Source: Candidatus Colwellbacteria bacterium (lineage in GTDB: Bacteria > Patescibacteriota > Minisyncoccia > UBA6257 > Colwellbacteraceae). Taken from it: DNA of 64,000 bases. Made by a program: the position numbers and the translations under genes. Below, one piece after another: positions 16,773 to 42,672 of this stretch; the stretch's first letter is position 1; each line of letters opens with the position of its first letter. Under the pieces are notes generated by a model. It was not told where the DNA came from. It did not search any database and worked only from the letters and a program-made list of their open reading frames with translations. Location of the stretch: assembly GCA_028710275.1 (NCBI GenBank), contig JAQTUL010000007.1, positions 952 through 64,951 on the forward strand, written 5' to 3'.

Positions 16773-16797
16773 ACCCGCCTGATGGCGGGTTTTTTTG
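16773..16797 (+). terminator. rho-independent terminator (ACCCGCC-tgatg-GCGGGT followed by T7)
   Basis: hairpin followed by TTTTTTT after the surface-protein gene; the ATG at 16782 lies inside it. Confidence 0.7.
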
Positions 16798-16853
16798 ATA
16801 TGGGTATCTTAGTGTTTGTATCATTTCCGTCTTTTGGTTTATCATCTTCATAT

Positions 16854-17333
16854 ATGTCGAACGCAGTAAACGGACCTTCTTACGAAACACTCGAGGTTAG
16901 CGCTAAACTATATCCATTGGAGGCCATATATGGCGCGGTCTATGTCTTTCTGGACAAGGCTTATTTTTTCCTTGATGGGGACCCGGAAGATAAGGTGACC
17001 ATAAATATAAAAGGGAAGGAGGGGATTTCCCAAAATGATCTCAAACAACTCAAAAACGAGCTTCAGAATGAGCTTATAAACTATGCGTTTAGGGTTAAAA
17101 TATCCGAATCCAACAGAAAGATAAGAGAATACATAGTCGGAGCCGCCCTTCTGGGGGTTACGGGCGAGTTTGATATTCATCCGGCAAGTATAAGACCGGA
17201 GGAAAAAAATGATGACCGCGGACATCTGGCCGAGGAAGAAGTTGTCATAGACGATGTCTGGGCCGATGATCCTTTGGGAATAGCCGTTCCCTGGGAGGAT
17301 AAATATATGACCGAAAATAAAGAAGGGGAATAG
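16854..17333 (+). CDS. hypothetical protein, candidate HxsD-like His-Xaa-Ser system accessory protein (start uncertain, 16782 to 16854)
   Basis: first ORF of the Hxs-type cluster; contains ELINYAFRV, which resembles the LLNDYxLRE motif I recall for HxsD (from memory, unverified). Confidence 0.4.
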   Translation: MSNAVNGPSYETLEVSAKLYPLEAIYGAVYVFLDKAYFFLDGDPEDKVTINIKGKEGISQNDLKQLKNELQNELINYAFRVKISESNRKIREYIVGAALLGVTGEFDIHPASIRPEEKNDDRGHLAEEEVVIDDVWADDPLGIAVPWEDKYMTENKEGE

Positions 17334-17543
17334 ATGGATATCCTATTCAGCAAGAAGCTCTATAAAGAAGAGGCGATAGACGCGGCGGCGGCCGCCTTCA
17401 GCGACGTGGCTGACATATTCATAACGGTTGGGCGCGATATCATAGGCGTTGGCATAAAAGGCTGCGCCGCGGAGGATAAGCCGCTTATACAGAGCGAGTT
17501 TTCCAATTACGTGCTTTCAGAAATGAGGAGGCCCATTATTTAG
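17334..17543 (+). CDS. small protein (69 aa), second HxsD-like candidate
   Basis: start abuts the previous stop (TAGATG); C-terminal EFSNYVLSEMRR again resembles an LLNDYxLRE-type motif. Confidence 0.35.
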   Translation: MDILFSKKLYKEEAIDAAAAAFSDVADIFITVGRDIIGVGIKGCAAEDKPLIQSEFSNYVLSEMRRPII

Positions 17544-17549
17544 ACTATT

Positions 17550-19040
17550 ATGGAAAAAAACAAGTGCAAAGGCTGCATGAACTGCGGCAATATAGAGCTT
17601 GATCCCGATAAGCCGAATTTTTTCAGATTCAGGAAGGTGGGAGACCAGGTTCTTATAACTAATGATTTTGGAGGCAGTCATTTTCTTTCGGAAGCTGATT
17701 TTAAGGATTTTGCTGAAGGAAAGATAACTCCGATACATGAGCAATATGACCCTCTTATGAAAGCGGGTTTTCTGAAGAGTGATATAGACGTTGATATGGC
17801 CCTTAATCTGTATAGGTCGAGAAACGCGTCAATATTCTACGGGCCATCCCTCCATATAATAGTCGTCACACTGAGGTGTAACTATAAGTGTGTCTATTGT
17901 CAGGCGAGTTCAAGGCCGATGGATGGAATCGGATATGATATGGATATAGAAACTGCGAGAAAGACAGTTGATTTTATATTTTCTACGCCTAATCCCTCAA
18001 TAACGATAGAGTTCCAGGGCGGTGAGCCACTTATTAACTGGGAGGCTATCAAGTTTATAACCGAATACGCAAGACAAAAGGAGGCTGAGACGGGAAAGAA
18101 GGTTTTTCTTTCGCTCGTTTCTAATCTCAGTCTTCTCGATGAGGAAAAGCTTGATTTCATAATTGATCACGGGGTGGGTCTCTGTACTTCCATTGACGGT
18201 CCAGAGGAGCTTCATAATCTCAATCGTCCGATGCCTGGAGGGAACAGCTATCGGGAGACTATGGATCGAGTAGATAGGATAAAAAAGCTAGAAGCTGACA
18301 GGGAGGCGGAAAAAAAGCCGATGTATAAGCTTTCAGCCCTACTTACCGTATCAAAAAGGTCTCTTTCGCAACCTAAGGAGATAATCGACGAATATCTGAA
18401 ACATGGTTTTACGGGGATACATCTCCGGCCTTTAAGCTATCTAGGGGACGCGACAAAAACGGGAGATTCTATCGGATATAGCGCCTTAGAATTCATGGAT
18501 TTCTGGAAAAGGTCCCTCGATTACATATTGGAATTAAATATGGCTGGTGCGGAGTTCACTGAGCGCGGATCGGCGATTGTTTTGCAGAAGATATTAAAGG
18601 CGATGGACCCGGGGTATGTTGACCTCAAATCTCCGTGCGGAGCCGTGATAGGCCAGATGCTCTATAACTACGATGGCAAAATATACACTTGCGATGAAGG
18701 AAGAATGTGTGAAGGAGATGTATTCGCGTTAGGAAGGGTGGATGATACGGGTGGAGAAGAGACTAAGGAGGCGTATAACGAAAATTATAAGCGTATCGTC
18801 ACCGGCGGGAAGACAAAGGCGATGCTCGTAGCATCGACCCTTGATAACACCCCTTGTGACTATTGTGCCTATAAACCTTATTGTGGGGTCTGTCCTGTTA
18901 TAAACTATTCAACATCCGGTAATCTTTATCCCCAGATGGCGACAAGTGACTGGTGTGTCAGACAGAAAGCCATGTTCGACTACCTATTCGAGAAGATGCA
19001 GCATCCGGAGTATCTGAAAATATTCAAAAAATGGATATAA
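17550..19040 (+). CDS. radical SAM enzyme with C-terminal SPASM-like domain and Cys-rich N-terminal extension (Hxs-system maturase candidate)
   Basis: CNYKCVYC (CxxxCxxC) cluster motif, GGEPL, C-terminal CDYCAYKPYCGVC SPASM-type Cys motif, N-terminal CKGCMNC. Confidence 0.85.
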   Translation: MEKNKCKGCMNCGNIELDPDKPNFFRFRKVGDQVLITNDFGGSHFLSEADFKDFAEGKITPIHEQYDPLMKAGFLKSDIDVDMALNLYRSRNASIFYGPSLHIIVVTLRCNYKCVYCQASSRPMDGIGYDMDIETARKTVDFIFSTPNPSITIEFQGGEPLINWEAIKFITEYARQKEAETGKKVFLSLVSNLSLLDEEKLDFIIDHGVGLCTSIDGPEELHNLNRPMPGGNSYRETMDRVDRIKKLEADREAEKKPMYKLSALLTVSKRSLSQPKEIIDEYLKHGFTGIHLRPLSYLGDATKTGDSIGYSALEFMDFWKRSLDYILELNMAGAEFTERGSAIVLQKILKAMDPGYVDLKSPCGAVIGQMLYNYDGKIYTCDEGRMCEGDVFALGRVDDTGGEETKEAYNENYKRIVTGGKTKAMLVASTLDNTPCDYCAYKPYCGVCPVINYSTSGNLYPQMATSDWCVRQKAMFDYLFEKMQHPEYLKIFKKWI

Positions 19041-19179
19041 GAGGAGAAGAAACGATTGGTTTTATCAGATAAGAAACTTTGATCGATAAGCAGACTGTCG
19101 AAATCCACAGCTAGAAGATATACTTATACTGTATAATCAATTAAGTGTTCCATTTAAGCGAAAAACAAGGAATATTAAA

Positions 19180-20055
19180 GTGGATATAAAAAAGAAGCTT
19201 CCGGCAATAAGAAAGAATATAGAGTCTTTTCTCATAAGTGAGGAAGGGCGCATAAGCAAGAAGAGCGCTCTTGAGCTTGGTATGGGAATAGCCGCGCTTG
19301 GCTTCATGCTTACGCAGTCGATTACATCGGCTCATTATAGTTATTTCGAGAACGTTGCCGGACAAGGGAGACATCAATCGGGAGATGCGGTTCCTCCGCC
19401 ACCGGCGGCAGGAAGCCATACGAGCTATTTTGAAAATACGGCTGGTGGAGGAAGACATTCTTCACATGCTTCACATGCATCCCATGGTTCACACGGTTCT
19501 CATGGGTCTCATTCTTCGCATTCCTCCCATGGTTCACATGGTTCTCATGGTTCGCACAGCTCTCACTCATCTCATGGTTCACACGGTTCTCATGGGTCTC
19601 ATTCTTCGCATTCCTCCCATGGTTCACATGGTTCTCATGGTTCGCACAGCTCTCACTCATCTCATGGTTCACATAGCTCTCATGGTTCTCACTCATCCCA
19701 TGGTTCACATAGCTCTCATGGTTCTCACTCTTCTCACTCTTCACATGGTTCACATGCTTCCCATGGTTCTCATGGTTCACATGCTTCCCATGGTTCTCAT
19801 GGTTCTCACTCTTCTCACTCTTCCCATGGTTCTCATGGTTCGCACAGCTCTCACTCATCTCATGGTTCGCATAGCTCGCACGGTTCGCATGGTTCCCATT
19901 CCTCCCATGGTTCTCATGGCTCCCACTCTTCGCATAGTTCTCATGGCTCCCACTCTTCGCATAGCTCGCATTCTAGCTGTGGTGTCATGATTACAGACAT
20001 GGACTGCTATTCCTGTAATTACGCGGCAGGAGATGTTACAACCGGAGTAGTCTAG
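19180..20055 (+). CDS. hxsA: His-Xaa-Ser repeat protein (HxsA-like putative precursor/substrate)
   Basis: N-terminal hydrophobic segment, two YFEN(V/T)AG.GRH motifs, then about 58 consecutive H-[SGA]-S triplets and a Cys-containing tail (SSCGVMITDMDCYSCNY). Confidence 0.85.
   Translation: MDIKKKLPAIRKNIESFLISEEGRISKKSALELGMGIAALGFMLTQSITSAHYSYFENVAGQGRHQSGDAVPPPPAAGSHTSYFENTAGGGRHSSHASHASHGSHGSHGSHSSHSSHGSHGSHGSHSSHSSHGSHGSHGSHSSHSSHGSHGSHGSHSSHSSHGSHSSHGSHSSHGSHSSHGSHSSHSSHGSHASHGSHGSHASHGSHGSHSSHSSHGSHGSHSSHSSHGSHSSHGSHGSHSSHGSHGSHSSHSSHGSHSSHSSHSSCGVMITDMDCYSCNYAAGDVTTGVV
19456..19977 (+). repeat. coding tandem repeat region of hxsA (9-bp H-x-S units; higher-order 90-bp unit duplicated exactly at 19486..19575 and 19576..19665)
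   Basis: direct reading: the CAT GGT TCN / CAT TCT TCN units are periodic; the 90-nt blocks are identical. Confidence 0.9.
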
Positions 20056-20088
20056 GTAGCATTCTTTCTTTGTGATAGGCTATCGGTA

Positions 20089-21369
20089 ATGCAGTTTACT
20101 GGTCTTGAAATAATGGTGGCAGGAACCTGTCCGCTTAACTGCTCATATTGCTACATACCTAAAACTCCCGGCATGGACAGGATCCACCGGGATGTTCTGG
20201 TTTCACTCGAGGATGAATCGGTTTTTAAAAGGGCTTTTAATCTTGCTGGAGGGGGCATAGAGAACATCGGCTTCTGGGGTACGGAACCGGCAATAGTTAT
20301 GGATGTTCTCACTGATAAGATACCGACAATGAAGAGAATTTTTCCCTTGCTTAGGCATATATCCTTTTCGACTTCCGGTATTGCAGCTGATCCTATAATT
20401 CCTTTCGTGAAGGCGGCTTCCCGATCCGGCATAAACGTAAACATACAGGTGTCCCTAGACGGGCCAGATTTTATTTCGGATGTAAATCGTTTTTCAGGAG
20501 CGGCCGATATAGTTCCCAATAATGTAAAGAAGATTGTTTCAGCCCTTAAGGATATTCAAGCGAAGCTTGTCATAAATTGGAAGCCGACGCTGACACTTCA
20601 GAACATGAAGGAAATGGATGACAGCAAGATAAGGGAATATTTTGATTTTTTTAAAAGAGTAAACACAGAAATAATATCGGCGAACAAAAATCCTAACATA
20701 CGCATAGCCGAACATTCGGCTGCTCCGACTCCGATGCTTCCCGGAAAATATACTGCTCTCGATGGGGTGGCGTTTGCTGAATTCATAAGAAGAGTACACG
20801 CGACCGGGAATAGGACCGCTCATACGATAAAGATGATTGATTTTTTCCGAAGGACGGCGGAATTTAAGAATGATAAAAAAAGGATGATGTGTGGGGCTGG
20901 CAACTCTTTTATGGCCGTTGGAGGCAGGGGGTTTATATGTCATAGGAGCTTTTTCTTCGACGACGACGATTATGTTGATGCGGCGATAGCGGGAACGGAC
21001 GAATGGTTGGTGGCGAAGCTTAACAGAAAAACGGTCGAGATGCTTCGTAAATGGTATATGCCGGACCCTGATGACAAGGGAGATATAGAGAGATATCTCC
21101 ATGTGATGGAAGGTTTTCATAGGTTCAATAAGTTGGCTGTTTCAAATATAGAGGCAGCGACTTTGGAATTGGCTATGGTCGGCCAGGTAGACCGTGAATT
21201 TCTAGATGATCCCGTATATCTAAGACTCTTTGCGTTGTTTATGAGTACCGCCTCTAATTGTCCTTTCGAAAACATTCTCAATACCTCCTCTGCTAACGTT
21301 ATGCCTTTCTCAATGATAAGGTTCCACGGAAACGGGGCGTTCCGGGAGGTGATAAAAACCATAAGATGA
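20089..21369 (+). CDS. radical SAM enzyme (Hxs-system maturase candidate, HxsB/HxsC-like)
   Basis: N-terminal CPLNCSYCY cluster motif, GFWGTEP (GGE-like), C-terminal Cys/Gly-rich region (MMCGAGNSFMAVGGRGFICH). Confidence 0.8.
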   Translation: MQFTGLEIMVAGTCPLNCSYCYIPKTPGMDRIHRDVLVSLEDESVFKRAFNLAGGGIENIGFWGTEPAIVMDVLTDKIPTMKRIFPLLRHISFSTSGIAADPIIPFVKAASRSGINVNIQVSLDGPDFISDVNRFSGAADIVPNNVKKIVSALKDIQAKLVINWKPTLTLQNMKEMDDSKIREYFDFFKRVNTEIISANKNPNIRIAEHSAAPTPMLPGKYTALDGVAFAEFIRRVHATGNRTAHTIKMIDFFRRTAEFKNDKKRMMCGAGNSFMAVGGRGFICHRSFFFDDDDYVDAAIAGTDEWLVAKLNRKTVEMLRKWYMPDPDDKGDIERYLHVMEGFHRFNKLAVSNIEAATLELAMVGQVDREFLDDPVYLRLFALFMSTASNCPFENILNTSSANVMPFSMIRFHGNGAFREVIKTIR

Positions 21370-22706
21370 CGGAAGAATTTAAAAAAGAGAATGATGCGGT
21401 CGCTGAATCCTTTATAAAGAGATATTTTATCGATCCCTGGAAAAGCGATGACAGGAAGGTGTGGGAGCACTCACGGAACTTTGAAGTCTTTTTTGGGACA
21501 AAGTGTCCTTTTGGCTGCAAATACTGTTACCTGAACAGAAAAGGGGATGATTTGTATCCGACCGATATCCAGAGAGACGATGTTCTTATAGCTAATATGG
21601 CTAAGGTGCTCGAGTGGATGAAGCGAGAGAATATGGCACCAAAAGGATTTTTATTCTTTTCCGGAGAACCCTTCGTCCAAGAGGCATGCATGAAGGCAAT
21701 AGATATGACGCTCGATGCCTTTGCTGAAAGTGAAAAAAAGCCGGAGCAGATAACGGTTCCGACCGGTTTTGGATTCATGTTCTACCCAGAAATGGTCGAG
21801 CGCGTCGAGAAACTGATGGAAAAATCCAGGCGTGTTGGGATACCAATACATCTAAGCGCCTCGATAGACGGTAAGCATTGCGAGCCAAACCGACCCTTCA
21901 AGGATCAGACGATTAAGCGGGATGATGAATTTTACGACAAGGCCTTCAGCTTTATGGCTAAGTGGAAGATCGGAGCCCATCCGATGATCTATTCGGACCT
22001 TATTGAGAATTGGAAGGATAATTGGAAATGGTTCCAAGAAAAATTCTTAAAACACGGGATACCTTTCTATAAGATATATCTTTTAGAGGTAAGAAACGCC
22101 GAATGGTCACCGGATCAGATTGGCCGATTCTCGGAGTTCATTGATTTTCTCATTGAATGGACATATGAAAAGGTTTTCAATAAGAACGCTGATCATACTT
22201 TGGATTTCATATTCAACCACGGCTTCAATCTTTTAAGAAACTCATTTCTAGAGGGTGATGGAAGAGGGATGAAATGCGCCCTCCAAGATTATATGTTCCT
22301 AAGGCTGGGAGACCTTGCCTGGGTACCTTGTCATCGAACCTCTTATGACCAATTCATCTTTGGGCGTTTCATCGAGAAAAACGGGAAAATAGACGGTTTT
22401 AGCTCCGATAATTCCGATCTTATTCCGGCCATCTATTCCATGAAGGGGGAGGATATGCCTTATTGCGAGAACTGTGCCATAAGAGACCTGTGTGTCCAAG
22501 GGTGTCTCGGAAGCCAATATGAGGCGACGGGAGACCTTTTTTCGCCTATACCGACCGTCTGTGAGTTGGAACACGTAAAAGTATTTACGATAATAAAAAC
22601 TCTCAAGAGGCTGGGTCTTATTGATAAGGCGACGGCATATATCCCTGAAAATAGAAGAAAAGCGTTTAAGAGGGTCTCTGATATGGTTCTGAATACGGTA
22701 AACTGA
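21366..22706 (+). CDS. radical SAM/SPASM enzyme (Hxs-system maturase candidate), translationally coupled to the preceding rSAM
   Basis: CPFGCKYCY cluster motif, FFSGEPF, canonical SPASM CX2CX5CX3C (CENCAIRDLCVQGC); 4-nt start/stop overlap. Confidence 0.8.
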   Translation: MTEEFKKENDAVAESFIKRYFIDPWKSDDRKVWEHSRNFEVFFGTKCPFGCKYCYLNRKGDDLYPTDIQRDDVLIANMAKVLEWMKRENMAPKGFLFFSGEPFVQEACMKAIDMTLDAFAESEKKPEQITVPTGFGFMFYPEMVERVEKLMEKSRRVGIPIHLSASIDGKHCEPNRPFKDQTIKRDDEFYDKAFSFMAKWKIGAHPMIYSDLIENWKDNWKWFQEKFLKHGIPFYKIYLLEVRNAEWSPDQIGRFSEFIDFLIEWTYEKVFNKNADHTLDFIFNHGFNLLRNSFLEGDGRGMKCALQDYMFLRLGDLAWVPCHRTSYDQFIFGRFIEKNGKIDGFSSDNSDLIPAIYSMKGEDMPYCENCAIRDLCVQGCLGSQYEATGDLFSPIPTVCELEHVKVFTIIKTLKRLGLIDKATAYIPENRRKAFKRVSDMVLNTVN

Positions 22707-22722
22707 TAGAATTGCCTTTGAT

Positions 22723-23253
22723 ATGGAGACAAAACCGGATATCCGAAAGATAAGGGTGGGCCTACAAAAAGTTAGGGACATATATGCCCTTAGGCGGGGT
22801 TTTACTGATATCCTCGAAGAAAAGATAAGCTCGGAACTCGATAAGGCACTCGGTACTGTTTCCGGACAGCTCGAAGCTTCATTCATTGACGAAGAAGTGA
22901 AGTCCGAGCCAATCGATGCTCCATGGCTAATAAAATTGACCAAGGCGATTGCCGACGCCTCTATTTATAGACAAATTGATGATCAGTTTGCTGATTTTGT
23001 ATCCGAATACTCCATGGTTGTGTCCGCCTGGAACGACCGAGTGGTTCGATCAAGTGAATTAACGAGAGAGCTTGCGGTTGCGGAATCCCTTGCAGTTAGT
23101 CGCCCGGCGATGATCCAAGCAGCAAAGGCACTAAGGGCTCTTTCTGAGAAGCTTATACAGCTTAACTTTATCGAAACCCCAGCTCTTAATATGAGTAAGT
23201 TCTATCTTGATTCGCTTCGGAAAAACTTGGAGAAGAAAGAAGAAAAAGAATAA
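22723..23253 (+). CDS. hypothetical alpha-helical protein between the Hxs-type module and the rSAM paralog array
   Basis: 176-aa ORF on the same strand, tightly packed; no recognisable family. Confidence 0.45.
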   Translation: METKPDIRKIRVGLQKVRDIYALRRGFTDILEEKISSELDKALGTVSGQLEASFIDEEVKSEPIDAPWLIKLTKAIADASIYRQIDDQFADFVSEYSMVVSAWNDRVVRSSELTRELAVAESLAVSRPAMIQAAKALRALSEKLIQLNFIETPALNMSKFYLDSLRKNLEKKEEKE

Positions 23254-23255
23254 AA

Positions 23256-24176
23256 ATGGAGAGAGTTGATATCAAGGTTGGATTCCAATGCAACAATCAT
23301 TGCATCTTCTGTATACAAGGCAACAAGAGGGAATACTGTAAGGACCGGACAGAAGATGAGATAAAGAAAATATTGGAACAGGGTCGGTCCGAAGGAAAGG
23401 AGGCGGTCGTTTTCACGGGCGGCGAGCCAACTTTTCGTCCGAAGCTTCTTCTTAATTGCGTCTCGTATGCAAGGGATATTGGTTATAGGGTCATACAGAT
23501 ACAATCTAATGGGAGGATGTTCGCATATCGGGCATATTGCGAGGAGATAGTCCGGGCGGGAGCTAATGAATTCTCTCCTGCGGTACATGGGTCGGTCGCC
23601 TCTATACATGACCGTCTCACAAACGCGCCCGGAAGTTTTGATCAGGTTACTGCTGGTATTCGAAATCTGAGAGAACTGAGACAATATATTCTTACCAATT
23701 CGGTGGTAACGAAAATAAATATGGAAGATATACCAAATCTAGCGAAGCTGTTGGTCGAGCTTAGGGTAGACCAGTTCCAGTTCGCTTTTATACATATAAA
23801 TCCGATTATTGCAGAAGACCAGAAGCTCATTGAAGAAGTGGTTCCCTCGATGGCCAAGGCCATGCCTTATGTGAAGGCTGGTCTCGATATAGGCCGGAAG
23901 TCGGGAGTTAAGTGCATGACTGAAGCAATTCCCTATTGCATGATGAGAGAGTACGAAGACCTTATCGCCGAGAGGATAATACCAGAAGCTCATGTCTTCG
24001 ATGCTGAGGAGGATATAGAGAAATACAGCGAGTACAGACAGAACGAAGGAAAATCAAAGGGGCCAAGGTGCGTTTCGGAGTGCATTAAGAACGACGTATG
24101 CGAGGGCCCATGGAGGGAATATCCGCAGCTTTTCGGCTGGGAAGAGTTTAAGCCGATAACCGAAGAAAAGATATGA
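23256..24176 (+). CDS. radical SAM enzyme, array paralog 1 (twitch/SPASM-like, MoaA/PqqE-type core)
   Basis: CNNHCIFC cluster motif, FTGGEPT, QSNGR, GSFDQ..GI.NL, C-terminal CVSECIKNDVCEGPW. Confidence 0.8.
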   Translation: MERVDIKVGFQCNNHCIFCIQGNKREYCKDRTEDEIKKILEQGRSEGKEAVVFTGGEPTFRPKLLLNCVSYARDIGYRVIQIQSNGRMFAYRAYCEEIVRAGANEFSPAVHGSVASIHDRLTNAPGSFDQVTAGIRNLRELRQYILTNSVVTKINMEDIPNLAKLLVELRVDQFQFAFIHINPIIAEDQKLIEEVVPSMAKAMPYVKAGLDIGRKSGVKCMTEAIPYCMMREYEDLIAERIIPEAHVFDAEEDIEKYSEYRQNEGKSKGPRCVSECIKNDVCEGPWREYPQLFGWEEFKPITEEKI

Positions 24177-25102
24177 AAAAGCAAGGAGTAATACTGCTAA
24201 GGTGGGCTAATAAATGTAATAACAACTGCGCGATGTGCAGTCTTCATTCAGGAGATAGTGAAGAGGAGGTTATGTCCATCGAAGAAGCGCTCGATTTCAC
24301 GAGAAAAAACGCGGCATCATATCAAAATATCGAGTTCACTGGAGGCGAGCCGACGATAAAGGAGGGTCTCGTCGATCTTGTCGCGGCAGCCAGAGAATCG
24401 GGATATGAGAGAATAGCTATAAGTACTAACGGCAGAAGGCTTTCTGATGAAAATTTTTGCCGTAAACTAATTGATAACGGTCTGAATGCTGTGACCTTCG
24501 CCCTCCATGGGCATGATGTGGAAACTCATGAAAAGAGGATGAGTAGATCGGATGGAGCTTTTAATGAGGCGATACGAGGTCTCAAAAACCTGATTACAGA
24601 ACATTCAGTGTCATTAAACGTCGCATCTGTTCTTGCAAGACATAACCACGAAACCTTCTCGGAGATTGGCAAGATGCTTATAGAGATGGGCGTTAAGCAA
24701 TGGAGTATATCGGACTTAATCCCGGACGGGAGGGCGCAGGATATATATGATTCACTAAGCCTCAGTCCTTCGGAGGCGGAAAAGGCAATAAGCGGCATTC
24801 TGCCTATGGCTGGTCAGATTGGGCTTGTTATATTTAATTTTTCAAGATGTTTTTTCCCGAGGGACCTTGATGACAGGATACTTTTCTTCGATACCAGAGA
24901 TAAAGCTGATCTTTGTAATATAGAGAGAAAGGAAGGCCGCTATGAGAAGGAGGGCGAAGTCTATCACGATTTTCATAAGACATATCTCGGGATATGCGAA
25001 AAATGTCCGGCATATGAGACATGCGGAGGAGTATGGAGAAGAAATATGGAGCTGTACGGAGAGGGGATAATGACCGAAGTAGCTAGAAGAAACGGTTTTT
25101 GA
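24173..25102 (+). CDS. radical SAM enzyme, array paralog 2
   Basis: CNNNCAMC, FTGGEPT, STNGRR, C-terminal CEKCPAYETCGGVW; ATGA overlap with paralog 1. Confidence 0.8.
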   Translation: MKKQGVILLRWANKCNNNCAMCSLHSGDSEEEVMSIEEALDFTRKNAASYQNIEFTGGEPTIKEGLVDLVAAARESGYERIAISTNGRRLSDENFCRKLIDNGLNAVTFALHGHDVETHEKRMSRSDGAFNEAIRGLKNLITEHSVSLNVASVLARHNHETFSEIGKMLIEMGVKQWSISDLIPDGRAQDIYDSLSLSPSEAEKAISGILPMAGQIGLVIFNFSRCFFPRDLDDRILFFDTRDKADLCNIERKEGRYEKEGEVYHDFHKTYLGICEKCPAYETCGGVWRRNMELYGEGIMTEVARRNGF

Positions 25103-25133
25103 TGCCGAGCTCTCCAAAAATAAAAAAAGACAT

Positions 25134-26075
25134 ATGAAAAAACCAGGAATGATATTCGTCAGATGGGCCAACAGATGCAATAACAATTGTGAGATGTGCA
25201 GTCTTCATTCTGACGACAGCAGAGATGAATCGATGTCGTTCGAAGAGGCGGCGGAGTTTACGATAAAAAACATCGATGAATATTCTAATATCGAGTTTAC
25301 GGGAGGCGAACCGACGATAAAGGAGGGCCTTTTAGAGCTTGTCGCTCTGGCGAAGAAGACGGGATACGATAAGATATGTATCAGTACTAACGGCAGAAGG
25401 CTTTCCGATGAAAATTTTTGCCACGCTCTCGCGGAGAACGGCTTGAACGTTGTGACATTTGCTCTTCATGGGCATAATGCTGAGACCCATGAGAGAATGA
25501 GCCGCGTTATCGGTTCTTTTGAAGAGTCGATGGAGGGAATAAAGAATGTTCTTAATGAACCAACGATGGCGCTTGCGATAACATCCGTCTTATCAAGACA
25601 TAACCACGAAACCTTCTCGGAGATTGGCAAGATGCTTATAGAGATGGGCGTTAAGCAATGGAGTATATCGGACTTAATCCCGGACGGGAGGGCGCAGGAT
25701 ATATATGATTCACTAAGCCTCAGTCCTTCGGAAATGGGGAAATCCCTAGCTGAGGCGATCCCTCTTTTTCCCGGTTTCTATCAGGTTGGGATATTTAATT
25801 TTTCAAGATGCTTTTTCCCAGAAGAACTCTATAGGAACGTTGCATTCTTTGATACGAAAGCAAAAGCTGATCTGTGGGATATAGAAGGTAAGGAGGGCCG
25901 CTATGAGAAGGAGGGCGAAGTTTATCACGATTTTCATAAGACATATCTCGGAATATGCGAAAAATGTCCGGCATATGAGACATGCGGAGGAGTATGGAAG
26001 AGAAGTCTGGAACTATATGGGCCTTCAGAAATGGAAAAAATAGCGAGGGTAAACGGTTTTGTGGAGACGGTGTAA
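25134..26075 (+). CDS. radical SAM enzyme, array paralog 3 (recent duplicate of paralog 2)
   Basis: CNNNCEMC, FTGGEPT, STNGRR; C-terminal half nearly identical to paralog 2, including 100%-identical nucleotide patches. Confidence 0.8.
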   Translation: MKKPGMIFVRWANRCNNNCEMCSLHSDDSRDESMSFEEAAEFTIKNIDEYSNIEFTGGEPTIKEGLLELVALAKKTGYDKICISTNGRRLSDENFCHALAENGLNVVTFALHGHNAETHERMSRVIGSFEESMEGIKNVLNEPTMALAITSVLSRHNHETFSEIGKMLIEMGVKQWSISDLIPDGRAQDIYDSLSLSPSEMGKSLAEAIPLFPGFYQVGIFNFSRCFFPEELYRNVAFFDTKAKADLWDIEGKEGRYEKEGEVYHDFHKTYLGICEKCPAYETCGGVWKRSLELYGPSEMEKIARVNGFVETV

Positions 26076-26096
26076 TATAGGATATAAATAAGACCA

Positions 26097-27074
26097 ATGG
26101 AAAAGACAGTATTCATACAATTGAACTCAACGTGCAATCAGCACTGTCTTTTTTGTAATAGGCCGCCGCAATCGGAAAGGAGCCCGGAATATCTAACCTT
26201 CGAACAAGTAATAAAAAAGATAGATGAGTGCGCTGATGATCCGGAGATAATAAGAGTGTGTCTCACCGGAGGGGAGCCGACCTTATATCCGCGTCTTGTT
26301 GAGGCGGTTACCCGTTGTCACGAGAGAGGCAAGCATGTGGAGATACAGACGAACGGGGTTGCCCTAACAAAGGAAAGAATAAAGGAATTGAAAGACGCAG
26401 GCATAGATATAATAAACTTTGCGTTCCATAGTCATAAGAAGGAAATAAGCAACAGGCTGAGAGGTGTCGATTTCGGTTTTGAGAACATAACCGAATCGAT
26501 AAAGGAGGCTAACCGTCTCGGAATAGTGATTCATATAGTGCATGTCATAACGAAGCTGAACTATAAGGATCTACCGGAGTTTATAGACACTTTTTCAGAT
26601 ATGGGACTTGATCTGCCAAAGATGTTCCTTAATCTTTCAATAGTCGTTCCGGATGGATGGGCCTGGGAGAATAAGGATGTGATCGTCCCAAGGATGTCTG
26701 ATATAAAGCCTTATCTAATCGAAGCCTGCCATAAATGCAAAGAATATGGGATAACCTTCGATATTTCGGAGGTGGTTCCGCTGTGCATAGTGGATGGGTA
26801 TGAGGATATGGCGATATCGACGGTCTTCAAGATAAACAACGCTGTTATAGTCGATGATTACCATACAGGTAAAAAATCCCTCGAGTTTGCCGCTGCTGAC
26901 GAGAGCTGGGCTATGAAGGCTCCCCAATGCGTAAAATGTTCCATGAACGAAATATGTGTCGGATTCTACCCTCATCTTTCTGAGATGTACGGCTTCGAAG
27001 ATTATGTTCCGAGAACGGATGATCCGGCCGAGATAATAAGCCGATTTAAGGGACCAGAAGATGACAGGCAATAA
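26097..27074 (+). CDS. radical SAM enzyme, array paralog 4
   Basis: CNQHCLFC, LTGGEPT, QTNG, C-terminal CVKCSMNEICVGFY. Confidence 0.8.
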   Translation: MEKTVFIQLNSTCNQHCLFCNRPPQSERSPEYLTFEQVIKKIDECADDPEIIRVCLTGGEPTLYPRLVEAVTRCHERGKHVEIQTNGVALTKERIKELKDAGIDIINFAFHSHKKEISNRLRGVDFGFENITESIKEANRLGIVIHIVHVITKLNYKDLPEFIDTFSDMGLDLPKMFLNLSIVVPDGWAWENKDVIVPRMSDIKPYLIEACHKCKEYGITFDISEVVPLCIVDGYEDMAISTVFKINNAVIVDDYHTGKKSLEFAAADESWAMKAPQCVKCSMNEICVGFYPHLSEMYGFEDYVPRTDDPAEIISRFKGPEDDRQ

Positions 27075-28035
27075 TAGAGACAATCAAGGTTTTCCAGAGA
27101 GGATCTGCGTCGTGATGACAGGCTTTTCGTGCAACAACAACTGCATCGTCTGCAGCGTTAGGCCTTACGGACGAAATAATCAGGATAGAGAAACGGCTGA
27201 CATAATAAGATCGATGGAGGAGGGAAGAAATAATGGTATTCCGGGAGTCGAGTTCACCGGAGGCGAACCGACCATGAGAAGAGATATTCTTGCCCTTATA
27301 TCGAAAGCGAAGGAGCTTGGCTATAAGGAAATAGCTTTAAGTACCAATGCAAGAGCATTCGGATACGAGAAGTTCGCGGATGCCGCGATAGAGAGCGGAC
27401 TTAATAGGGTTACGTCCACTATCGACGGTCACAGCGCAGTAGCTCATGATGCGCTGACGAGGACGCCTGGATCATTTGATCAGACGATACAAGGCATAAA
27501 GAATCTCGTTGCCCGCGGGATGAGAATCAGCGTCAATACGGTATTCTGTAAGATGACCGCGCCGAACCTATCTGACATAGGCCGGACCATAACCGATCTC
27601 GGAGTACCCGTGTGGGGAATATTAGACCTGATTCCGGACGGTAATATAGCGGAGATATATCCCGATTTCGTAGTCACTCTTAATGATACATACACCGCTC
27701 TTGATTCCATATATGATATAGCGAGGGAAATAGACCACGTTAATCTCTTTGATTTTCCTATTTGCGCCATACCGGAAAGACTTCGGATATCAAAGCATGC
27801 GGCGGTTTTTGATGCCTTTTCGCGTTCTGATCTTCTGAAGCAGACGGGTTATGACCCTCAGAGGTTCACTGAGGTGGAAGGAAATTACAGCGATATATAT
27901 AAGACGAGACTTAATGGATGCTTATCCTGCCTTAAGAAAGAGGATTGCGCCGGGATATGGAACAGATATATTGACGTTTATGGTAAGGAGGGCGCGGAAG
28001 ATTTCATCACGGACCATAAGGTAGGGAAACAATAA
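27061..28035 (+). CDS. radical SAM enzyme, array paralog 5
   Basis: CNNNCIVC, FTGGEPT, STNAR, TPGSFDQTIQGIKNL, C-terminal CLSCLKKEDCAGIW; 14-nt overlap with paralog 4. Confidence 0.8.
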   Translation: MTGNNRDNQGFPERICVVMTGFSCNNNCIVCSVRPYGRNNQDRETADIIRSMEEGRNNGIPGVEFTGGEPTMRRDILALISKAKELGYKEIALSTNARAFGYEKFADAAIESGLNRVTSTIDGHSAVAHDALTRTPGSFDQTIQGIKNLVARGMRISVNTVFCKMTAPNLSDIGRTITDLGVPVWGILDLIPDGNIAEIYPDFVVTLNDTYTALDSIYDIAREIDHVNLFDFPICAIPERLRISKHAAVFDAFSRSDLLKQTGYDPQRFTEVEGNYSDIYKTRLNGCLSCLKKEDCAGIWNRYIDVYGKEGAEDFITDHKVGKQ

Positions 28036-28051
28036 GGTTGCTGAATCTTAA

Positions 28052-29266
28052 ATGGAGAACAATATCAAAAAGATAGAGGAAATATGTAAGGACAAGAAGA
28101 TAGAACGCAACACCGGCAGTGAAGGCGCTAACAAGGTTATCTATCTCAATCTTGGGGCCCAATGCAATCAGAACTGTAATTTTTGTCTTATAAAAGGGAG
28201 TGAGGGTAATTTTCCATTCATGCCTCTCGTTGAAGCAAAAAGGATAATAAAGGATTTTGCCGAGAGTGGCGGAGAGATGCTTATGATAACAGGAGGCGAG
28301 CCGACTCTCTATCCCGAACTGGATGAGGTTATAGCCTTTGCGGATCTTTTTCCGGGAATAAAACAGGTTTCCATATTAACGAACGCGACCGCCTTTGCCG
28401 ATGGGCTATACACTGAGAAGATAATAGGACGAGATAAATCTAATAAGCTTGGATTTTCGGTCTCCTTTCATTCTCATATCGCAGAAGTCTCGGATAAGAT
28501 AACTCAGGGAATGCCGGGGGATTACGGAAGGACGGTCTCCGGCCTTGCTAATATATCCAAATGGAACAGACAAATATCCGTCTATCACGCGATAGTCTCA
28601 GATAATTTCAATCTCCTTCCTGATTTCGTCGAATGGATAAATGTTAATTTTCCGAACATAAATTCGGTTGTGATGGCTTATCCTTTTCCTCAAGGGAACG
28701 CTGATAAGAATTCCTGGATATACGTTAAATTTACGGAGCTTAAACCTTATTTACTGAAAGCGCTGCATTTTCTTAGAGAAAAAAATATCAGTTCTAATAT
28801 AGCGACCTGCGGACAATTTCCATTATGTATCATACCCGAGTTTGAGGAAAAGGTGCTGAACATGCTGATATTTTTCAGAAAGAATGTCGCGGGTACTGTC
28901 GGTAAAGACGTTTTTCATGAGACGGAATGGTCATCGGAGAAATGGATAAATAACTATAAGAATAAATCTCCTCAGTGTGACCAATGTATCCTTAATGAAG
29001 TTTGTCAGGGCTTTTGGAAAAAATACACGGACATATTTGGTTTTGACGGGGTATCTCCGGTTACCAGGAAGACTTTTGAGGGAAATATCGTCAAGATTGA
29101 TCTCAATACCGAAAATGTCTTTGATCGCGTGATGGCGAGGATATTATGGGAGAGGTTAAACCTTATAATAGCGAAAGGGGACGATGTGATGATATCTAGG
29201 CTGAAGGATGCTCTTGCGGACAATGGAGTTCCGGCAGTTGTGATAAGGGATGACGAAGAGGTCTAA
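28052..29266 (+). CDS. radical SAM enzyme, array paralog 6 (longer, 404 aa, with N- and C-terminal extensions)
   Basis: CNQNCNFC, ITGGEPT, C-terminal CDQCILNEVCQGFW. Confidence 0.75.
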   Translation: MENNIKKIEEICKDKKIERNTGSEGANKVIYLNLGAQCNQNCNFCLIKGSEGNFPFMPLVEAKRIIKDFAESGGEMLMITGGEPTLYPELDEVIAFADLFPGIKQVSILTNATAFADGLYTEKIIGRDKSNKLGFSVSFHSHIAEVSDKITQGMPGDYGRTVSGLANISKWNRQISVYHAIVSDNFNLLPDFVEWINVNFPNINSVVMAYPFPQGNADKNSWIYVKFTELKPYLLKALHFLREKNISSNIATCGQFPLCIIPEFEEKVLNMLIFFRKNVAGTVGKDVFHETEWSSEKWINNYKNKSPQCDQCILNEVCQGFWKKYTDIFGFDGVSPVTRKTFEGNIVKIDLNTENVFDRVMARILWERLNLIIAKGDDVMISRLKDALADNGVPAVVIRDDEEV

Positions 29267-29292
29267 AAAGGACTTGGGAAAAGATACATAAA

Positions 29293-30267
29293 ATGGATAT
29301 AACCGAGGCATACAAGAAGATACACGATATAACCGCGGCCATACCGATAAACGGGGAGGAAATATTAGGTGTTTACATAGGGATAAAGCCGGCGATGGCC
29401 GAGGCAAATACTGGGATATACAACGCTGATTTTCTAAGGAAGATGAGCGTAGTGAACTCTATATGCGGAGAGCTGGGTCTGAAGCTTGCTGTGTCGAAAT
29501 ATAAGTACGTCATAAATAGCCCAAGAGGCATATTTAAGGAGGTATTAAGAGACGACCCGGCGCCCGGATGTTTAATAATAGGTATAGCGAGAGATATGGA
29601 GAAGGCAGTAAGCGGCGTTGCTCATTATCATCTCAAGATGCATCATAGCAAGTATGGAAGGAGCTTCGCTGAGCTTATGGGATATCCTTCCTGTTGTATA
29701 GATTTTGGCGACTATCTCGCCAACAATAAAGGTGATCCGGATAATTTCGGGTTCAAAAATCCGGCAATTGAGGTACTCAAGAGGTCGGATAAAGTTGCCT
29801 GGCAGTTAAACGTTTTTTCTACATCTTCAATGCTTTCGCATTTTCCTTGCAGTTATACCTGCAAGAAGAGTATTGATTATATGAACTCTCTATTAGGCGC
29901 TATAAAGGAGGCCGATCTAGAACATGGCAGGGTGGTGGAAGATAACCTAAAACAGGATATTTCAGTATATTGGAGCTGTGTAGATAAGGTGATGCTTCGC
30001 GGAGATTTTATAAAAAAGGACTCGCTTTTCAGGGAAGGGGAGGCTAGATACGAGAGTATAAAATGGCCGATAGGATCAGAAAACTTTTATCAGGAGGTGG
30101 ACAGCGAGTATCTAGACGGGATGAAGACTATATGGAGGTCGATGGGGGAAGGAGACTGTATAAAGATATCAAAGAACAGCGTTTCAGTATTCAAGGGTGA
30201 TGATGAGATAGGACTTTTCGAGAAAGATAGCCAGTATTCACCGGTAATAGTAAGAGCCGATGCCTGA
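29293..30267 (+). CDS. hypothetical Cys/His-containing protein embedded in the rSAM array (not a radical SAM)
   Basis: 324-aa ORF lacking CxxxCxxC; HYHLKMHH, PSCCIDFGDY, FPCSYTCKK; 8-nt overlap with the next rSAM. Confidence 0.5.
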   Translation: MDITEAYKKIHDITAAIPINGEEILGVYIGIKPAMAEANTGIYNADFLRKMSVVNSICGELGLKLAVSKYKYVINSPRGIFKEVLRDDPAPGCLIIGIARDMEKAVSGVAHYHLKMHHSKYGRSFAELMGYPSCCIDFGDYLANNKGDPDNFGFKNPAIEVLKRSDKVAWQLNVFSTSSMLSHFPCSYTCKKSIDYMNSLLGAIKEADLEHGRVVEDNLKQDISVYWSCVDKVMLRGDFIKKDSLFREGEARYESIKWPIGSENFYQEVDSEYLDGMKTIWRSMGEGDCIKISKNSVSVFKGDDEIGLFEKDSQYSPVIVRADA

Positions 30268-31114
30268 CGAAAAAGATTTCATAAGCCCATACGTATATGT
30301 AGGTTTTCATTGCAATAATAATTGCATTTTTTGCAGTGAGGCTGATGAATATCTAGACGGAAGATTAGAGAAGGACTTTGATGATATCAAACATGAGATA
30401 GACCTTGTGAGGACCGGATACGATTTTGTAAATCTGATGGGTCGTGAGCCCACTCTCAGAAAGGATATCCTTTCCGTGGTTTCTTATGCGAAGAGTGTCG
30501 GTTTTAGACAGGTTGGCCTTACGACGAATGCCAGGATGTTATCGTACGCTCCTTTTGCTGAGGCTATCATAGGGTCTGGATTAAACCAGATAGGAATATC
30601 TCTTCTCGGCGCGACGGCCAAAACCCATGACCTTCTTTCGGCTGCTGAAGGGAGTTATGCTCAGACGATTGAAGGCATAAAGAATGTGATGAGATTTAAG
30701 GGGCCGGACCTGAGTGTTCTCGTAAACATCCCCCTTAACAGAAAGAACGTGTCCGAGCTGGAGGATGAGATAGATCTTCTAATATCTCTAGGGGTGAAAG
30801 AGATAAACGTGTTGTGGGTAGCCCCTCTTAGCCGAAGATCCAGGGATAAGGAACTTATCGGAAGGATGAGTGAACTCGGAAACCATGCTGCCAGGATTAT
30901 AAAAAATCATTTAGGAGAGGCAAAGTTTCTGATGGTCGAGTTCCTTCCTTGTAGCCTAAAAAAAGAATATAGAGATATGTTCTTTCCGTGCCTTGAGAAA
31001 AATCCGTCAAAAATAAGAATAACTTTATGTGGCGGATGTCCCTACGTCGACAAATGCGACGGAGTCCTTTCAAGCTATATTGATATGTACGGCGATGAAG
31101 AGTTTGAAATATAG
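30260..31114 (+). CDS. radical SAM enzyme, array paralog 7
   Basis: CNNNCIFC, GREPT, TTNAR, GSYAQTIEGIKNV, C-terminal CGGCPYVDKCDGV. Confidence 0.8.
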   Translation: MPDEKDFISPYVYVGFHCNNNCIFCSEADEYLDGRLEKDFDDIKHEIDLVRTGYDFVNLMGREPTLRKDILSVVSYAKSVGFRQVGLTTNARMLSYAPFAEAIIGSGLNQIGISLLGATAKTHDLLSAAEGSYAQTIEGIKNVMRFKGPDLSVLVNIPLNRKNVSELEDEIDLLISLGVKEINVLWVAPLSRRSRDKELIGRMSELGNHAARIIKNHLGEAKFLMVEFLPCSLKKEYRDMFFPCLEKNPSKIRITLCGGCPYVDKCDGVLSSYIDMYGDEEFEI

Positions 31115-31214
31115 GACCAGGTCTTCTTTATTGTGGATAGTGTTGTTTCAAAACGCCTGGTGTTAACATATAATCAATACATAAACCAAAAGAAAGCCTT
31201 TAAATAAAATAAAA

Positions 31215-31754
31215 ATGAAAAAATCTTATTATCTCGTCATAGCTCTTTTTGTGGCCGTAGCAGTATTTGTTGGGGGGGTACTTGTATACATGAATAAGGG
31301 AGTTTCGGTACCTTCTGATACCGTGCAGGAAAACATACAGACCGGCGAAGCCCCGACTATTCCGCCTGTGGATGATAAAGGAAAGTCTCCTGAGTTTAAG
31401 ACTACCTATAAGGGAAGGGACATAACCGCCAATCCCGATTACCAGATTGGCATTCTTGATGGAAAACTAGCTAAGGACCCGGACGTTGTTAATAAGACAA
31501 TATCGATGGATGTGGACATAATGAAGATATTTCCTAATATGGACATTGAGCAGCTGAATACCATTATTTCCGTATCAGGCGCTAAGTTTTTCGTGAAAGT
31601 CGGAAATGCTGAGCCTACAGAAGCGAGCTTGTCCGATCTTAAAGAAGGGGATGTAGTGAACGTTGGACTTGTCGATGGCCAGACGAATAGAGACATCGTC
31701 AAAGAGGGAAGCAAACTCACCGCTCAGCAGGTCTATAAGTTTATAATTCAATAA
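31215..31754 (+). CDS. membrane-anchored (signal-anchor) hypothetical protein within the rSAM array
   Basis: N-terminal TM helix YYLVIALFVAVAVFVGGVLVYM followed by a soluble domain; terminator follows. Confidence 0.5.
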   Translation: MKKSYYLVIALFVAVAVFVGGVLVYMNKGVSVPSDTVQENIQTGEAPTIPPVDDKGKSPEFKTTYKGRDITANPDYQIGILDGKLAKDPDVVNKTISMDVDIMKIFPNMDIEQLNTIISVSGAKFFVKVGNAEPTEASLSDLKEGDVVNVGLVDGQTNRDIVKEGSKLTAQQVYKFIIQ

Positions 31755-31773
31755 TTACCTATGGTGATAAGAG

Positions 31774-31802
31774 CCGACTCGATTAACTCGAGTCGGTTTT
31801 TT
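31774..31802 (+). terminator. rho-independent terminator inside the rSAM array (CCGACTCGA-ttaac-TCGAGTCGG followed by T6)
   Basis: perfect 9-bp stem followed by TTTTTT; followed by a TATAAT-like box at 31825..31832. Confidence 0.7.
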
Positions 31803-31838
31803 GTCCTTTTCTGTATCTCTTGTATATAATTCCGACTA

Positions 31839-32816
31839 ATGCCCCCAGATATAATAAAGAAAACAGTCGTATTTGCCGGATACAGATGTAACAACAACTG
31901 CCGGTTTTGTATGGAAGCTGATAAGAGAGATTTGCCTGTGAGGGGTACTGCTGTAATCAAGGGCGAGCTTAAATCAGCTAGAGAAAGGGGGTCTGATTAT
32001 ATCGAGATTATCGGAGGGGAGGCCGCAATGAGGTCTGACATAACATCAATCATCTCCTATGCCAAGGATTTGGGCTTTTCGACCATTATGATGGCTACGA
32101 ACGGCAGAATGTTTTCCTATCCGGAACTTACAAAGCGGCTCATCGATGCTGGGCTTAATAGCCTTGTTTTCTCGATACATGGAGCCGATGCGGAGACTCA
32201 TGACTACCTCACTCGGTCGCCTGGCAGTTTCGATCAATTGATAGTCGGGATGGAGAATGTGAAAAATGCGGCTATTATCTCGGGAGCCAGAATATCGCTG
32301 GGGTCGAATACCTGCATAGTAAAGGATAATTACCGTCAGCTTCCGGCAATCAGTGAGCTTATAGCTTCTTCTGGCGTTGGGAATTCAGAGTTTATATTCG
32401 TAGACTGCAACGAGGGAGGGGCGAAGAACAGTTTTGATGAGCTCGTTCCGAAGATATCTGACGCAGCTCCTTATATGAGAGAGTGTCTTGATATCGGAAA
32501 CAGAAATAAGGCTGATCATTGGGATGTCAGATATGTGCCCTTATGCTATTTTCCGGATCATCTGAATAGGATAAGTGAATTACATGAGGCAAAGACCTTT
32601 CATACGGAACATATCGCCCAGGATTTCGTGAATACCGATGCGCAAAGCGGTCGCAAGAATGTAGGGAGGAGAAAATCAAGAAGGTGTTCCGAGTGTATTC
32701 TCGACCCATGGTGTGAGGGAATATGGAGAACATATATCTCACGCTATGGAGATGATGAGCTTATTCCCATTACTGAGCTGACAGTTGGTCAAAAAGAGAT
32801 GCTTGATGGGCTCTAA
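31839..32816 (+). CDS. radical SAM enzyme, array paralog 8
   Basis: CNNNCRFC, IGGEAA, ATNGRMFSY, SPGSFDQLIVGMENV, C-terminal CSECILDPWCEGIW. Confidence 0.8.
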   Translation: MPPDIIKKTVVFAGYRCNNNCRFCMEADKRDLPVRGTAVIKGELKSARERGSDYIEIIGGEAAMRSDITSIISYAKDLGFSTIMMATNGRMFSYPELTKRLIDAGLNSLVFSIHGADAETHDYLTRSPGSFDQLIVGMENVKNAAIISGARISLGSNTCIVKDNYRQLPAISELIASSGVGNSEFIFVDCNEGGAKNSFDELVPKISDAAPYMRECLDIGNRNKADHWDVRYVPLCYFPDHLNRISELHEAKTFHTEHIAQDFVNTDAQSGRKNVGRRKSRRCSECILDPWCEGIWRTYISRYGDDELIPITELTVGQKEMLDGL

Positions 32817-32858
32817 TTCCGATATTTCGGGCAAAATGGTATCATTTACGAAATAGTC

Positions 32859-33056
32859 ATGGAAAAAGAGTACATAATCACCTATAGGAGCGAAGAGCAT
32901 TTTGAAGTTGTTGGTTGGGTAAAGGCCGAGTCTATGGAAGAGGCCAAAGAGCTGGCCAGAAACGTGCTCGCCAAAGAAGCGTCTTTTTATGGCGTGACCG
33001 AGGCAGAGATAGCCGAATACGGAACGTCGGAGACGATGAGCTTCGAAGAGAAGTAA
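32859..33056 (+). CDS. small acidic protein (65 aa), candidate precursor peptide or partner protein, TAATG-coupled to the next rSAM
   Basis: ORF ends with TAA overlapping the ATG at 33056; highly acidic, no Cys. Confidence 0.4.
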   Translation: MEKEYIITYRSEEHFEVVGWVKAESMEEAKELARNVLAKEASFYGVTEAEIAEYGTSETMSFEEK

Positions 33057-33985: not shown

Positions 33986-33996
33986 AATAATCAACA

Positions 33997-35148: not shown

Positions 35149-35209
35149 CATCGATTGGAGTAGTTATGTCCTTCTTGCGGTAATTAAATAGGGGTTCTAA
35201 TCTTACGAC

Positions 35210-35422: not shown

Positions 35423-35445
35423 AAAAATATCTCCGGATACTGAAA

Positions 35446-37814: not shown

Positions 37815-37907
37815 GTGACAGGATAATGATAAAGATACCCCGATATCGGGGTATCTTTATGTGCTAAATTTTAAAATTGAAATTTGGATTATCTAGCTTT
37901 CGGAATT

Positions 37908-42567: not shown

Positions 42568-42672
42568 GGGGAGGGGCCGGGAGGGGAGAAATGTCGCCCC
42601 TCCCGTTTAGGAAGAGATTAGAAACCGAGGGTTTCTAAAAGGAATAAGCGGATGCTTATGACGTGAGAGCTT

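Follow-up and report, generated by a model that had tools for sequence, protein, structure and literature searches.

Probable ectopic gene conversion between two old tandem HxsC-like radical SAM genes in an expanded His-Xaa-Ser locus of a Colwellbacteria genome

Introduction

How can two neighbouring genes be identical down to their synonymous sites in short stretches and yet be close to synonymous saturation elsewhere? The question is raised by two HxsC-like radical SAM genes, here called g2 and g3, which lie on the same strand, with g3 downstream of g2 beyond a spacer of 31 nucleotides (nt), in a 64,000-nt stretch of contig JAQTUL010000007.1 (GenBank assembly GCA_028710275.1, positions 952 to 64,951), the whole of which is referred to below as the window. 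A first-pass annotation of this DNA had seen in the two genes a recent tandem duplication with gene conversion between the copies. Our analysis supports the second half of that description: g2 and g3 are very probably old tandem paralogs that later underwent ectopic (non-allelic) gene conversion.

Short tracts of identity in a diverged background

Codon and nucleotide alignments of g2 and g3 give a whole-gene nucleotide identity of 74.6% (692/927), which falls to 65.9% (453/687) outside two tracts, where amino-acid identity is 61% (139/229); the figure of 80–85% initially proposed for the rest of the genes was thus too high. Inside the tracts, 235 of 237 nt are identical. Identity does not run uniformly along the genes, ranging from 31% to 100% in sliding windows, and the islands are discrete. 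Tract 1, which is present exactly twice in the window, consists of 139 nt without a single difference. It had been placed at 24641..24775 and 25599..25733 as completely identical; the island is real and slightly longer than supposed, although the two ranges agree at 134/135 positions, their last base being the first mismatch. The two mismatches of the 103-nt tract 2, GTC/GTT and GGG/GGA, are both synonymous. This patch, previously described as 24925..25040 versus 25885..26000 with about three differences, is likewise real, but those ranges are one base out of register, with 31/116 identical positions as written and 108/116 at an offset of 961. Divergence of the pair peaks in the segment between the tracts, where conservation across the family is also lowest. 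Apart from the tracts, g2 and g3 share no exact match longer than 23 nt. No conversion tract was found in the other pairs among the window's twelve radical SAM genes, in which the longest exact match is 14 nt.

Chance is excluded as the source of the tracts. The longest identical run in 100,000 shuffles of the codon columns was 66 nt, versus the 139 nt observed, and at conserved amino acids with degenerate codons the same codon is used in 73 of 75 cases within the tracts versus 71 of 133 outside (Fisher p = 6e-13). Divergence estimated by the Nei-Gojobori method gives the same contrast. In the background, the proportion of synonymous differences (pS) is 0.70 and the synonymous distance (dS) about 2, close to saturation, with nonsynonymous values pN = 0.258 and dN = 0.315. 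By contrast, dS is 0 in tract 1 and 0.107 in tract 2, where dN = 0. The counts of 0 differences in 139 nt and 2 in 103 nt do not allow either tract to be called older than the other. A third, short and perhaps older patch of about 40 nt (24422..24461) may share the conversion origin: 12 of its 13 variable sites unite g2 and g3, with a marginal global permutation value (p = 0.04). Another patch, 24830..24858, with one mismatch in 29 nt, was not significant.

Tracts and background have different histories

A protein search returned only two close relatives of g2 and g3: P0003, a 315-aa protein encoded at locus L004, and P0008, a C-terminal fragment encoded at locus L013. Both come from JGI sample 3300037067. 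The two loci (L004:1-3149 and L013:1-1138) represent two related populations in one sample, and P0003 and P0008 share about 77% nucleotide identity. L004 is collinear with the window through a 446-aa radical SAM gene, a 176-aa open reading frame (ORF) and the upstream paralog g1 (84% amino-acid identity between the g1 genes), and continues with a single g2/g3 homologue and then a gene resembling the downstream paralog g5. The order is the same in L013, where a g2/g3-type copy is directly followed by the g5-like gene, which contains a run of N. Neither locus has g4, the gene between g3 and g5; compared with the window, the relatives lack one copy and g4. More distant homologues (P0004–P0007, 41–50% identity) each occur as a single gene, in neighbourhoods unrelated to this one, and serve as outgroups only. 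Of the proteins looked up by exact sequence, g1 and g5 had records, which led to the Logan contigs used below, and g2, g3 and g4 had none.

Neighbour-joining trees of the two sets of columns are incongruent. Tract columns unite g2 and g3 in 300 of 300 bootstrap replicates, whereas background columns analysed with P0003 do so in 41/300 and place g3 with P0003 in 206/300, so that the unconverted columns come close to a trichotomy of g2, g3 and P0003 that is essentially unresolved. Among the sites that vary between the three sequences, those uniting g2 and g3 make up 44/44 in tract 1 and 35/37 in tract 2 (permutation p = 0/5000 each). Over the whole gene, 162 sites have g2=g3, 85 g2=P0003 and 95 g3=P0003; when the three fragments are subtracted, about 71 g2=g3 sites are left, fewer than either copy shares with P0003. 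Conversion between the tandem copies, as originally proposed, is thus supported by the dS contrast between tracts and background, by the incongruent trees and by the variable sites that unite g2 and g3.

The age of the duplication is another matter. In the background, g2 and g3 are at least as diverged from each other as either is from P0003: amino-acid identity is 60.8% for g2-g3 versus 63.6% for g2-P0003 and 65.1% for g3-P0003, and pN is 0.258 versus 0.22–0.23 for either copy compared with P0003. Judged from these columns, the duplication is not recent but old, with an age broadly comparable to that of the split from the L004 lineage. The flanking orthologues of the window and L004 are themselves saturated at synonymous sites (pS 0.79–0.88), and for this reason no finer date than old can be put on the duplication. 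The pair masquerades as much younger when the tracts are included, which is what misled the first-pass annotation.

A scenario of non-reciprocal exchange

We propose that g2 and g3, both intact, would have arisen by duplication long ago, and that homologous recombination between misaligned copies would later have moved short stretches one way, without reciprocal exchange. A short heteroduplex between the misaligned copies would have been resolved with one sequence overwriting the other, presumably through RecA-type strand invasion and heteroduplex repair. Such conversion would have erased all divergence, including that at synonymous sites, over 139 nt in tract 1 and about 103 nt in tract 2. 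Which enzymes acted, which copy was the donor and whether there were one or two events belong to what we infer; the two copies, the discrete and statistically significant tracts, their contrast in age with the background, the incongruent phylogenies and the absence of a constraint able to mimic the pattern rest on the data themselves.

Several points weigh against this scenario. Scans of genome contigs with g2, which gave only relatives of 29–41% identity, and of metagenome contigs with g3, which gave one relative of 25% identity, turned up no further genome carrying the two copies; donor and recipient can therefore not be polarised, and concerted evolution is not shown elsewhere. Given 34% background divergence, it is not obvious which sequence first supported strand exchange. 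The only recombination gene seen in the window is recG (37908..40043), recA and mismatch-repair genes not having been searched for. Finally, the window comes from a short-read contig, and the Logan assembly with which it is compared below may derive from the same reads.

Bacterial paralogs that undergo ectopic gene conversion include tufA and tufB of Salmonella and E. coli as well as the rRNA operons. Common to these and to g2/g3 are paralogs within one genome, discrete tracts identical at synonymous sites and incongruent phylogenies. In contrast to the tuf genes, g2 and g3 are arranged in tandem, about 960 bp apart, are far more diverged (34% at the nucleotide level) and reside in an uncultured bacterium of the Parcubacteria, part of the candidate phyla radiation (CPR). 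It is because of this tandem arrangement and greater divergence that conversion would be confined to two short patches instead of covering the whole gene. Programmed gene conversion, as in pilE/pilS of Neisseria and vlsE of Borrelia, relies on silent donor cassettes and dedicated elements and generates diversity of surface antigens. Non-reciprocal copying between tandem or nearby homologous cassettes is common to both situations, whereas g2 and g3 are each a complete enzyme gene that appears functional, and the copying homogenises them; no signs of a programmed process were found at this pair in our analysis. A literature search on gene conversion between radical SAM paralogs returned nothing relevant.

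The g2 and g3 proteins and the position of the tracts

Both proteins match the Pfam family Radical_SAM (PF04055; 69.6 bits for g2 and 75.2 bits for g3). The best NCBIfam models are HxsC4 and HxsC, with 114.9 and 106.3 bits for g2 and 122.4 and 108.9 bits for g3, all below the curated cutoffs (500 bits for HxsC4, NF038332; 267.9 bits for HxsC, TIGR03977). By these scores, g2 and g3 are relatives of HxsC/HxsC4, that is, HxsC-like, and not members of these families. Within the window, each finds its best match in the other, with 70% overall amino-acid identity versus at most 34% to any other paralog. The radical SAM motif reads CNNNCAMC in g2 and follows CNNNCxMC in both; its cysteines C15, C19 and C22, which form the CxxxCxxC cluster, are nearly invariant in the homologue alignment. 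Four further cysteines, C226, C275, C278 and C284, are invariant across 34 homologues and are candidate auxiliary-cluster cysteines in g2. Both proteins are probably functional, since all cluster cysteines are kept in both and background dN is well below dS.

An AlphaFold (AF2) model of g2, built on the homologue alignment, has a predicted local distance difference test score (pLDDT) of 93.4, and the solved folds that come closest to it are those of the generic twitch- or SPASM-type radical SAM enzymes BlsE, viperin, SkfB and MoaA. In this predicted model, tract 1 encodes residues 155–201, comprising helix 159–172, strand 176–180, the DLIPDG loop and the first part of helix 199–212. Tract 2 encodes residues 255–289, a beta hairpin plus CEKCPAYETCGG, carrying C275, C278 and C284. 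Coordinates of these and the neighbouring features are collected in Table 1.

Table 1. Genes, tracts and segments discussed in the text, in window coordinates
Feature	Position	Strand	Basis or remark
g2, HxsC-like radical SAM gene, 309 aa (paralog 2 of the first-pass annotation)	24173..25102	+	ORF
g3, HxsC-like radical SAM gene, 313 aa (paralog 3 of the first-pass annotation)	25134..26075	+	ORF
Probable conversion tract 1, g2 copy (139 nt, 0 differences)	24636..24774	+	Longest exact match, offset 958
Probable conversion tract 1, g3 copy	25594..25732	+	Identical to 24636..24774
Probable conversion tract 2, g2 copy (103 nt, 2 differences)	24935..25037	+	Offset 961
Probable conversion tract 2, g3 copy	25896..25998	+	Alignment to 24935..25037
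Unconverted segment between the tracts, most divergent, one indel, residues 202–254	24775..24934	+	31–77% nucleotide identity in sliding windows
Candidate third tract, short or older (1 mismatch in 40 nt versus 25383..25422)	24422..24461	+	Exact runs of 23 and 16 nt, over the STNGRRLSDENFC motif
g1, upstream HxsC-like radical SAM paralog, 306 aa	23256..24176	+	4-nt overlap with the start of g2; flank common to L004
g4, downstream HxsC-like radical SAM paralog	26097..27074	+	ORF, Pfam, NCBIfam
g5, downstream HxsC-like radical SAM paralog	27061..28035	+	ORF, Pfam, NCBIfam
hxsD	16782..17333	+	NCBIfam TIGR03976, 62 bits versus cutoff 50
hxsB	17550..19040	+	NCBIfam TIGR03978, 475.9 bits versus cutoff 370
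HxsA4-like repeat protein gene, 61 HxS triplets	19180..20055	+	NCBIfam NF038313, 101.4 bits versus cutoff 55

Alternative explanations

The alternative that survives best, and which is compatible with conversion, concerns the origin of g3: this gene, perhaps together with g4, may have entered the genome from a related Parcubacteria lineage rather than by local duplication, to be placed beside g2 and converted later. We consider this possible, if rather unlikely. In the background columns, g3 does group with the relatives' copies (206/300 as given above, 165/300 when P0008 is included), the C-terminal extension NGF[VI]E is common to g3 and the relatives and absent from g2, and the window has an extra block of 'copy + g4' where L004 and L013 have one copy followed by the g5-like gene. 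However, the grouping is weak in what is nearly a three-way split, no mobile-element gene or repeat flanks the block, and GC content is uniform across it (0.42–0.48), although composition is uninformative on foreign origin here.

A second possibility accepts conversion and adds selection for the mosaic, with g2 and g3 kept identical in two modules while residues 202–254 hyper-diverge. In the predicted model, the modules would be the auxiliary-cluster hairpin (C275/C278/C284) and the alpha5-beta6 face, which could dock a common partner such as the HxsA scaffold, HxsB or HxsD. In that case, the repeat flavours on which the enzymes act might differ between the two, the 61-repeat HxsA protein encoded upstream having 29 H-G-S and 25 H-S-S triplets, and conversion would preserve co-assembly during subfunctionalisation. 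We regard selection of this kind, to which only the placement of the tracts on the model points specifically, as quite unlikely.

Misassembly, flagged as a risk by the first-pass annotation, is a reasonable worry for a metagenome-assembled genome (MAG). The contig is assigned to a Candidatus Colwellbacteria bacterium (Parcubacteria, Patescibacteria); alleles of co-occurring strains might have been stitched in tandem, or polishing with mis-mapped reads might have homogenised the paralogs. Sample 3300037067 shows that two related variants of the gene (P0003 and P0008) can co-occur, and microdiversity is evident from three single-nucleotide polymorphisms (SNPs) between the MAG and a contig, L018, of the Logan assembly of run SRR22315508, which was made with a different assembler at k = 31. 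L018 corresponds to window 26799..37858, and the SNPs, at 28313, 28318 and 28960, all lie in the radical SAM gene 28052..29266, indicating strain microdiversity in the source population. The Logan assembly nevertheless argues against an artefact at g2/g3. Its contig L017 reproduces window 19839..24665 with 0 mismatches and breaks at genuine repeat boundaries: it starts 30 nt inside the end of an interval of repeated 31-mers in hxsA and stops 30 nt (k-1) into tract 1. Since the break falls where the first fully shared 31-mer begins, the raw reads contain two left contexts of tract 1. Furthermore, the 3' end of g2, the spacer and the 5' end of g3 are unique sequence, and the two SNPs of tract 2 phase the middle segments to their own 3' ends for k > 46. 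Because the sequence between the tracts is unique and the tract 2 SNPs tie the middle segments to the 3' ends, no linear path other than the reported tandem order appears to pass through every segment exactly once. The 139-nt repeat is also shorter than common read lengths, and composition is uniform across g1 to g5. Misassembly of the g2/g3 region is therefore unlikely, and we take an artefactual origin of the tracts, by stitching or by polishing, to be distinctly improbable.

Could the islands be the remnant of an identical pair, left by a recent whole-gene duplication after which the rest diverged fast? The copies lie side by side in the same orientation and are mutual best matches in the window (70% versus at most 34%), their nearest relative is single-copy, and their background pS of 0.70 is slightly lower than that of either compared with P0003 (0.77–0.79). 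Fast protein evolution cannot, however, create synonymous divergence, and dS is about 2 outside the islands versus 0 and 0.1 inside; moreover, background columns do not group the two copies (41/300), and outside the tracts they agree with each other at fewer sites (about 71) than with P0003 (85 and 95). Recent duplication, the other half of the first-pass description, is highly improbable.

To the idea that a constraint holds the islands identical, be it an embedded regulatory or RNA element, an overlapping antisense gene or very strong protein conservation, we give next to no credence: tract 1 does hold the conserved DLIPDG motif and tract 2 three invariant cysteines, and a 90-aa ORF (24526..24798) lies antisense to tract 1, but conservation among 32 other family members is 0.51 and 0.505 in the tracts versus 0.534 in the background (p = 0.25), the N-terminal core, although better conserved, has not been homogenised, and over the same codons P0003 and P0008 show ordinary synonymous divergence (pS 0.76–1.0), with identity not raised across the tracts. 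Protein-level conservation was accordingly rejected as the cause, the tracts not exceeding the family background. Also rejected were an antisense gene at 24526..24798, for which there is neither a family match nor a g3 counterpart, and an RNA element: Rfam searches (E up to 1) gave no family in the tracts, and their folding showed no excess relative to shuffled sequence (z = +0.24 and -0.15). The only Rfam match in 23000..27500, itself sub-threshold, lies inside the g3 coding sequence at 25784..25826 and is almost certainly due to chance (Na+ riboswitch aptamer RF03071, 23.3 bits versus a gathering threshold of 40.5, E = 0.099).

An expanded His-Xaa-Ser locus

The g2/g3 pair is part of a large His-Xaa-Ser (HXS) locus that spans 16782..35148. 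On the same strand, 4–7 kb upstream of the pair, lie hxsD, hxsB and a gene for an HxsA4-like repeat protein, which has an N-terminal hydrophobic segment, the HGS and HSS triplets mentioned above (29 and 25, respectively) and a Cys-rich tail. The locus has twelve radical SAM genes in all, including two weak SPASM-type genes (starting at 20089 and 21366) and nine HxsC-like ones (23256, 24173, 25134, 26097, 27061, 28052, 30260, 31839 and 32915), as well as three ORFs without a confident family (22723, 29293 and 31215) and a gene for a 383-aa A24 prepilin-peptidase-like protein (33997). HxsC4 is the best-scoring model for g1, g2, g3, g5 and the genes at 30260 and 31839, and none of the nine HxsC-like paralogs reaches the HxsC cutoff. 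The repeat region of hxsA (19461..19971) is a nested DNA tandem array with periods of 9, 27, 45, 81 and 90 nt and several exact repeats of at least 31 nt. Its repeat number is probably assembly-sensitive, since L017 starts at one of these repeats, and may vary between strains.

The canonical HXS system has recently been shown to block the entry of phage DNA; more than 99.8% of HXS systems consist of four genes, the gene order is D-B-C-A in 99.6%, and 99.7% are found in Pseudomonadota, while canonical HxsA has a peptidoglycan-binding domain in addition to its five repeats (Li et al., Nat Commun 2026, PMC13128918). The locus studied here has hxsD, hxsB and a His-Xaa-Ser repeat protein, all scoring above their NCBIfam cutoffs, and HxsC-like radical SAM genes in common with this system. 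By contrast, its order is D-B-A, its repeat protein contains 61 HxS triplets, it has two extra SPASM-type genes and nine HxsC-like paralogs, and its host is a Colwellbacteria MAG. The four-gene D-B-C-A architecture with a five-repeat HxsA is thus absent from this locus. With respect to the HxsC4 (NF038332) and HxsA4 (NF038313) families, the repeat protein passes the HxsA4 cutoff whereas g2 and g3 fall far below that of HxsC4. Taken by its gene content, the locus is a strongly expanded HXS variant.

Outside the locus, the closest homologues of g2 and g3 (P0004 and P0005, about 50% identity) are single genes beside copper-handling genes (L005:8362-10927 and L014:83-3244), namely those for a CsoR-like repressor, a protein with HMA, DsbD_2 and Cupredoxin_1 domains and an HMA P-type ATPase. 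The window, too, encodes a Cupredoxin_1 protein (14695..15195), which lies 1.6 kb upstream of hxsD. Such neighbours may tie the radical SAM subfamily, together with the His-rich repeat protein, to metal handling. Elsewhere in the window, the 3' end of tRNA-Pro(cgg) (42444..42515) and a terminator-like hairpin (AAAACCCCCTCATGGGGGTTTT) are repeated 171 nt downstream, 42508..42553 matching 42679..42724 exactly over 46 nt; the arrangement (42444..42724) looks like a small att-like or duplication scar.

Implications

Ectopic conversion between g2 and g3 would have practical and evolutionary consequences. The tracts are the only long identical substrates in the pair (the next longest being 23 nt) and for this reason should favour further conversion, and also unequal crossing-over. 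The latter would delete or amplify a unit of about 960 bp, so that strains may differ in copy number. When the HxsC-like array is dated or placed in a phylogeny, 24636..24774 and 24935..25037 have to be masked along with their partner copies. The 139-nt exact repeat also fragments assemblies made with small k, as the Logan contig illustrates. More generally, the pair points to homologous recombination at work inside a small Parcubacteria genome. As a mosaic, it is a new example of a well-known process and in that sense ordinary; the wider HXS locus is more unusual and, with its position outside Pseudomonadota, its 61 repeats and its twelve radical SAM genes, deserves more attention than the mosaic itself.

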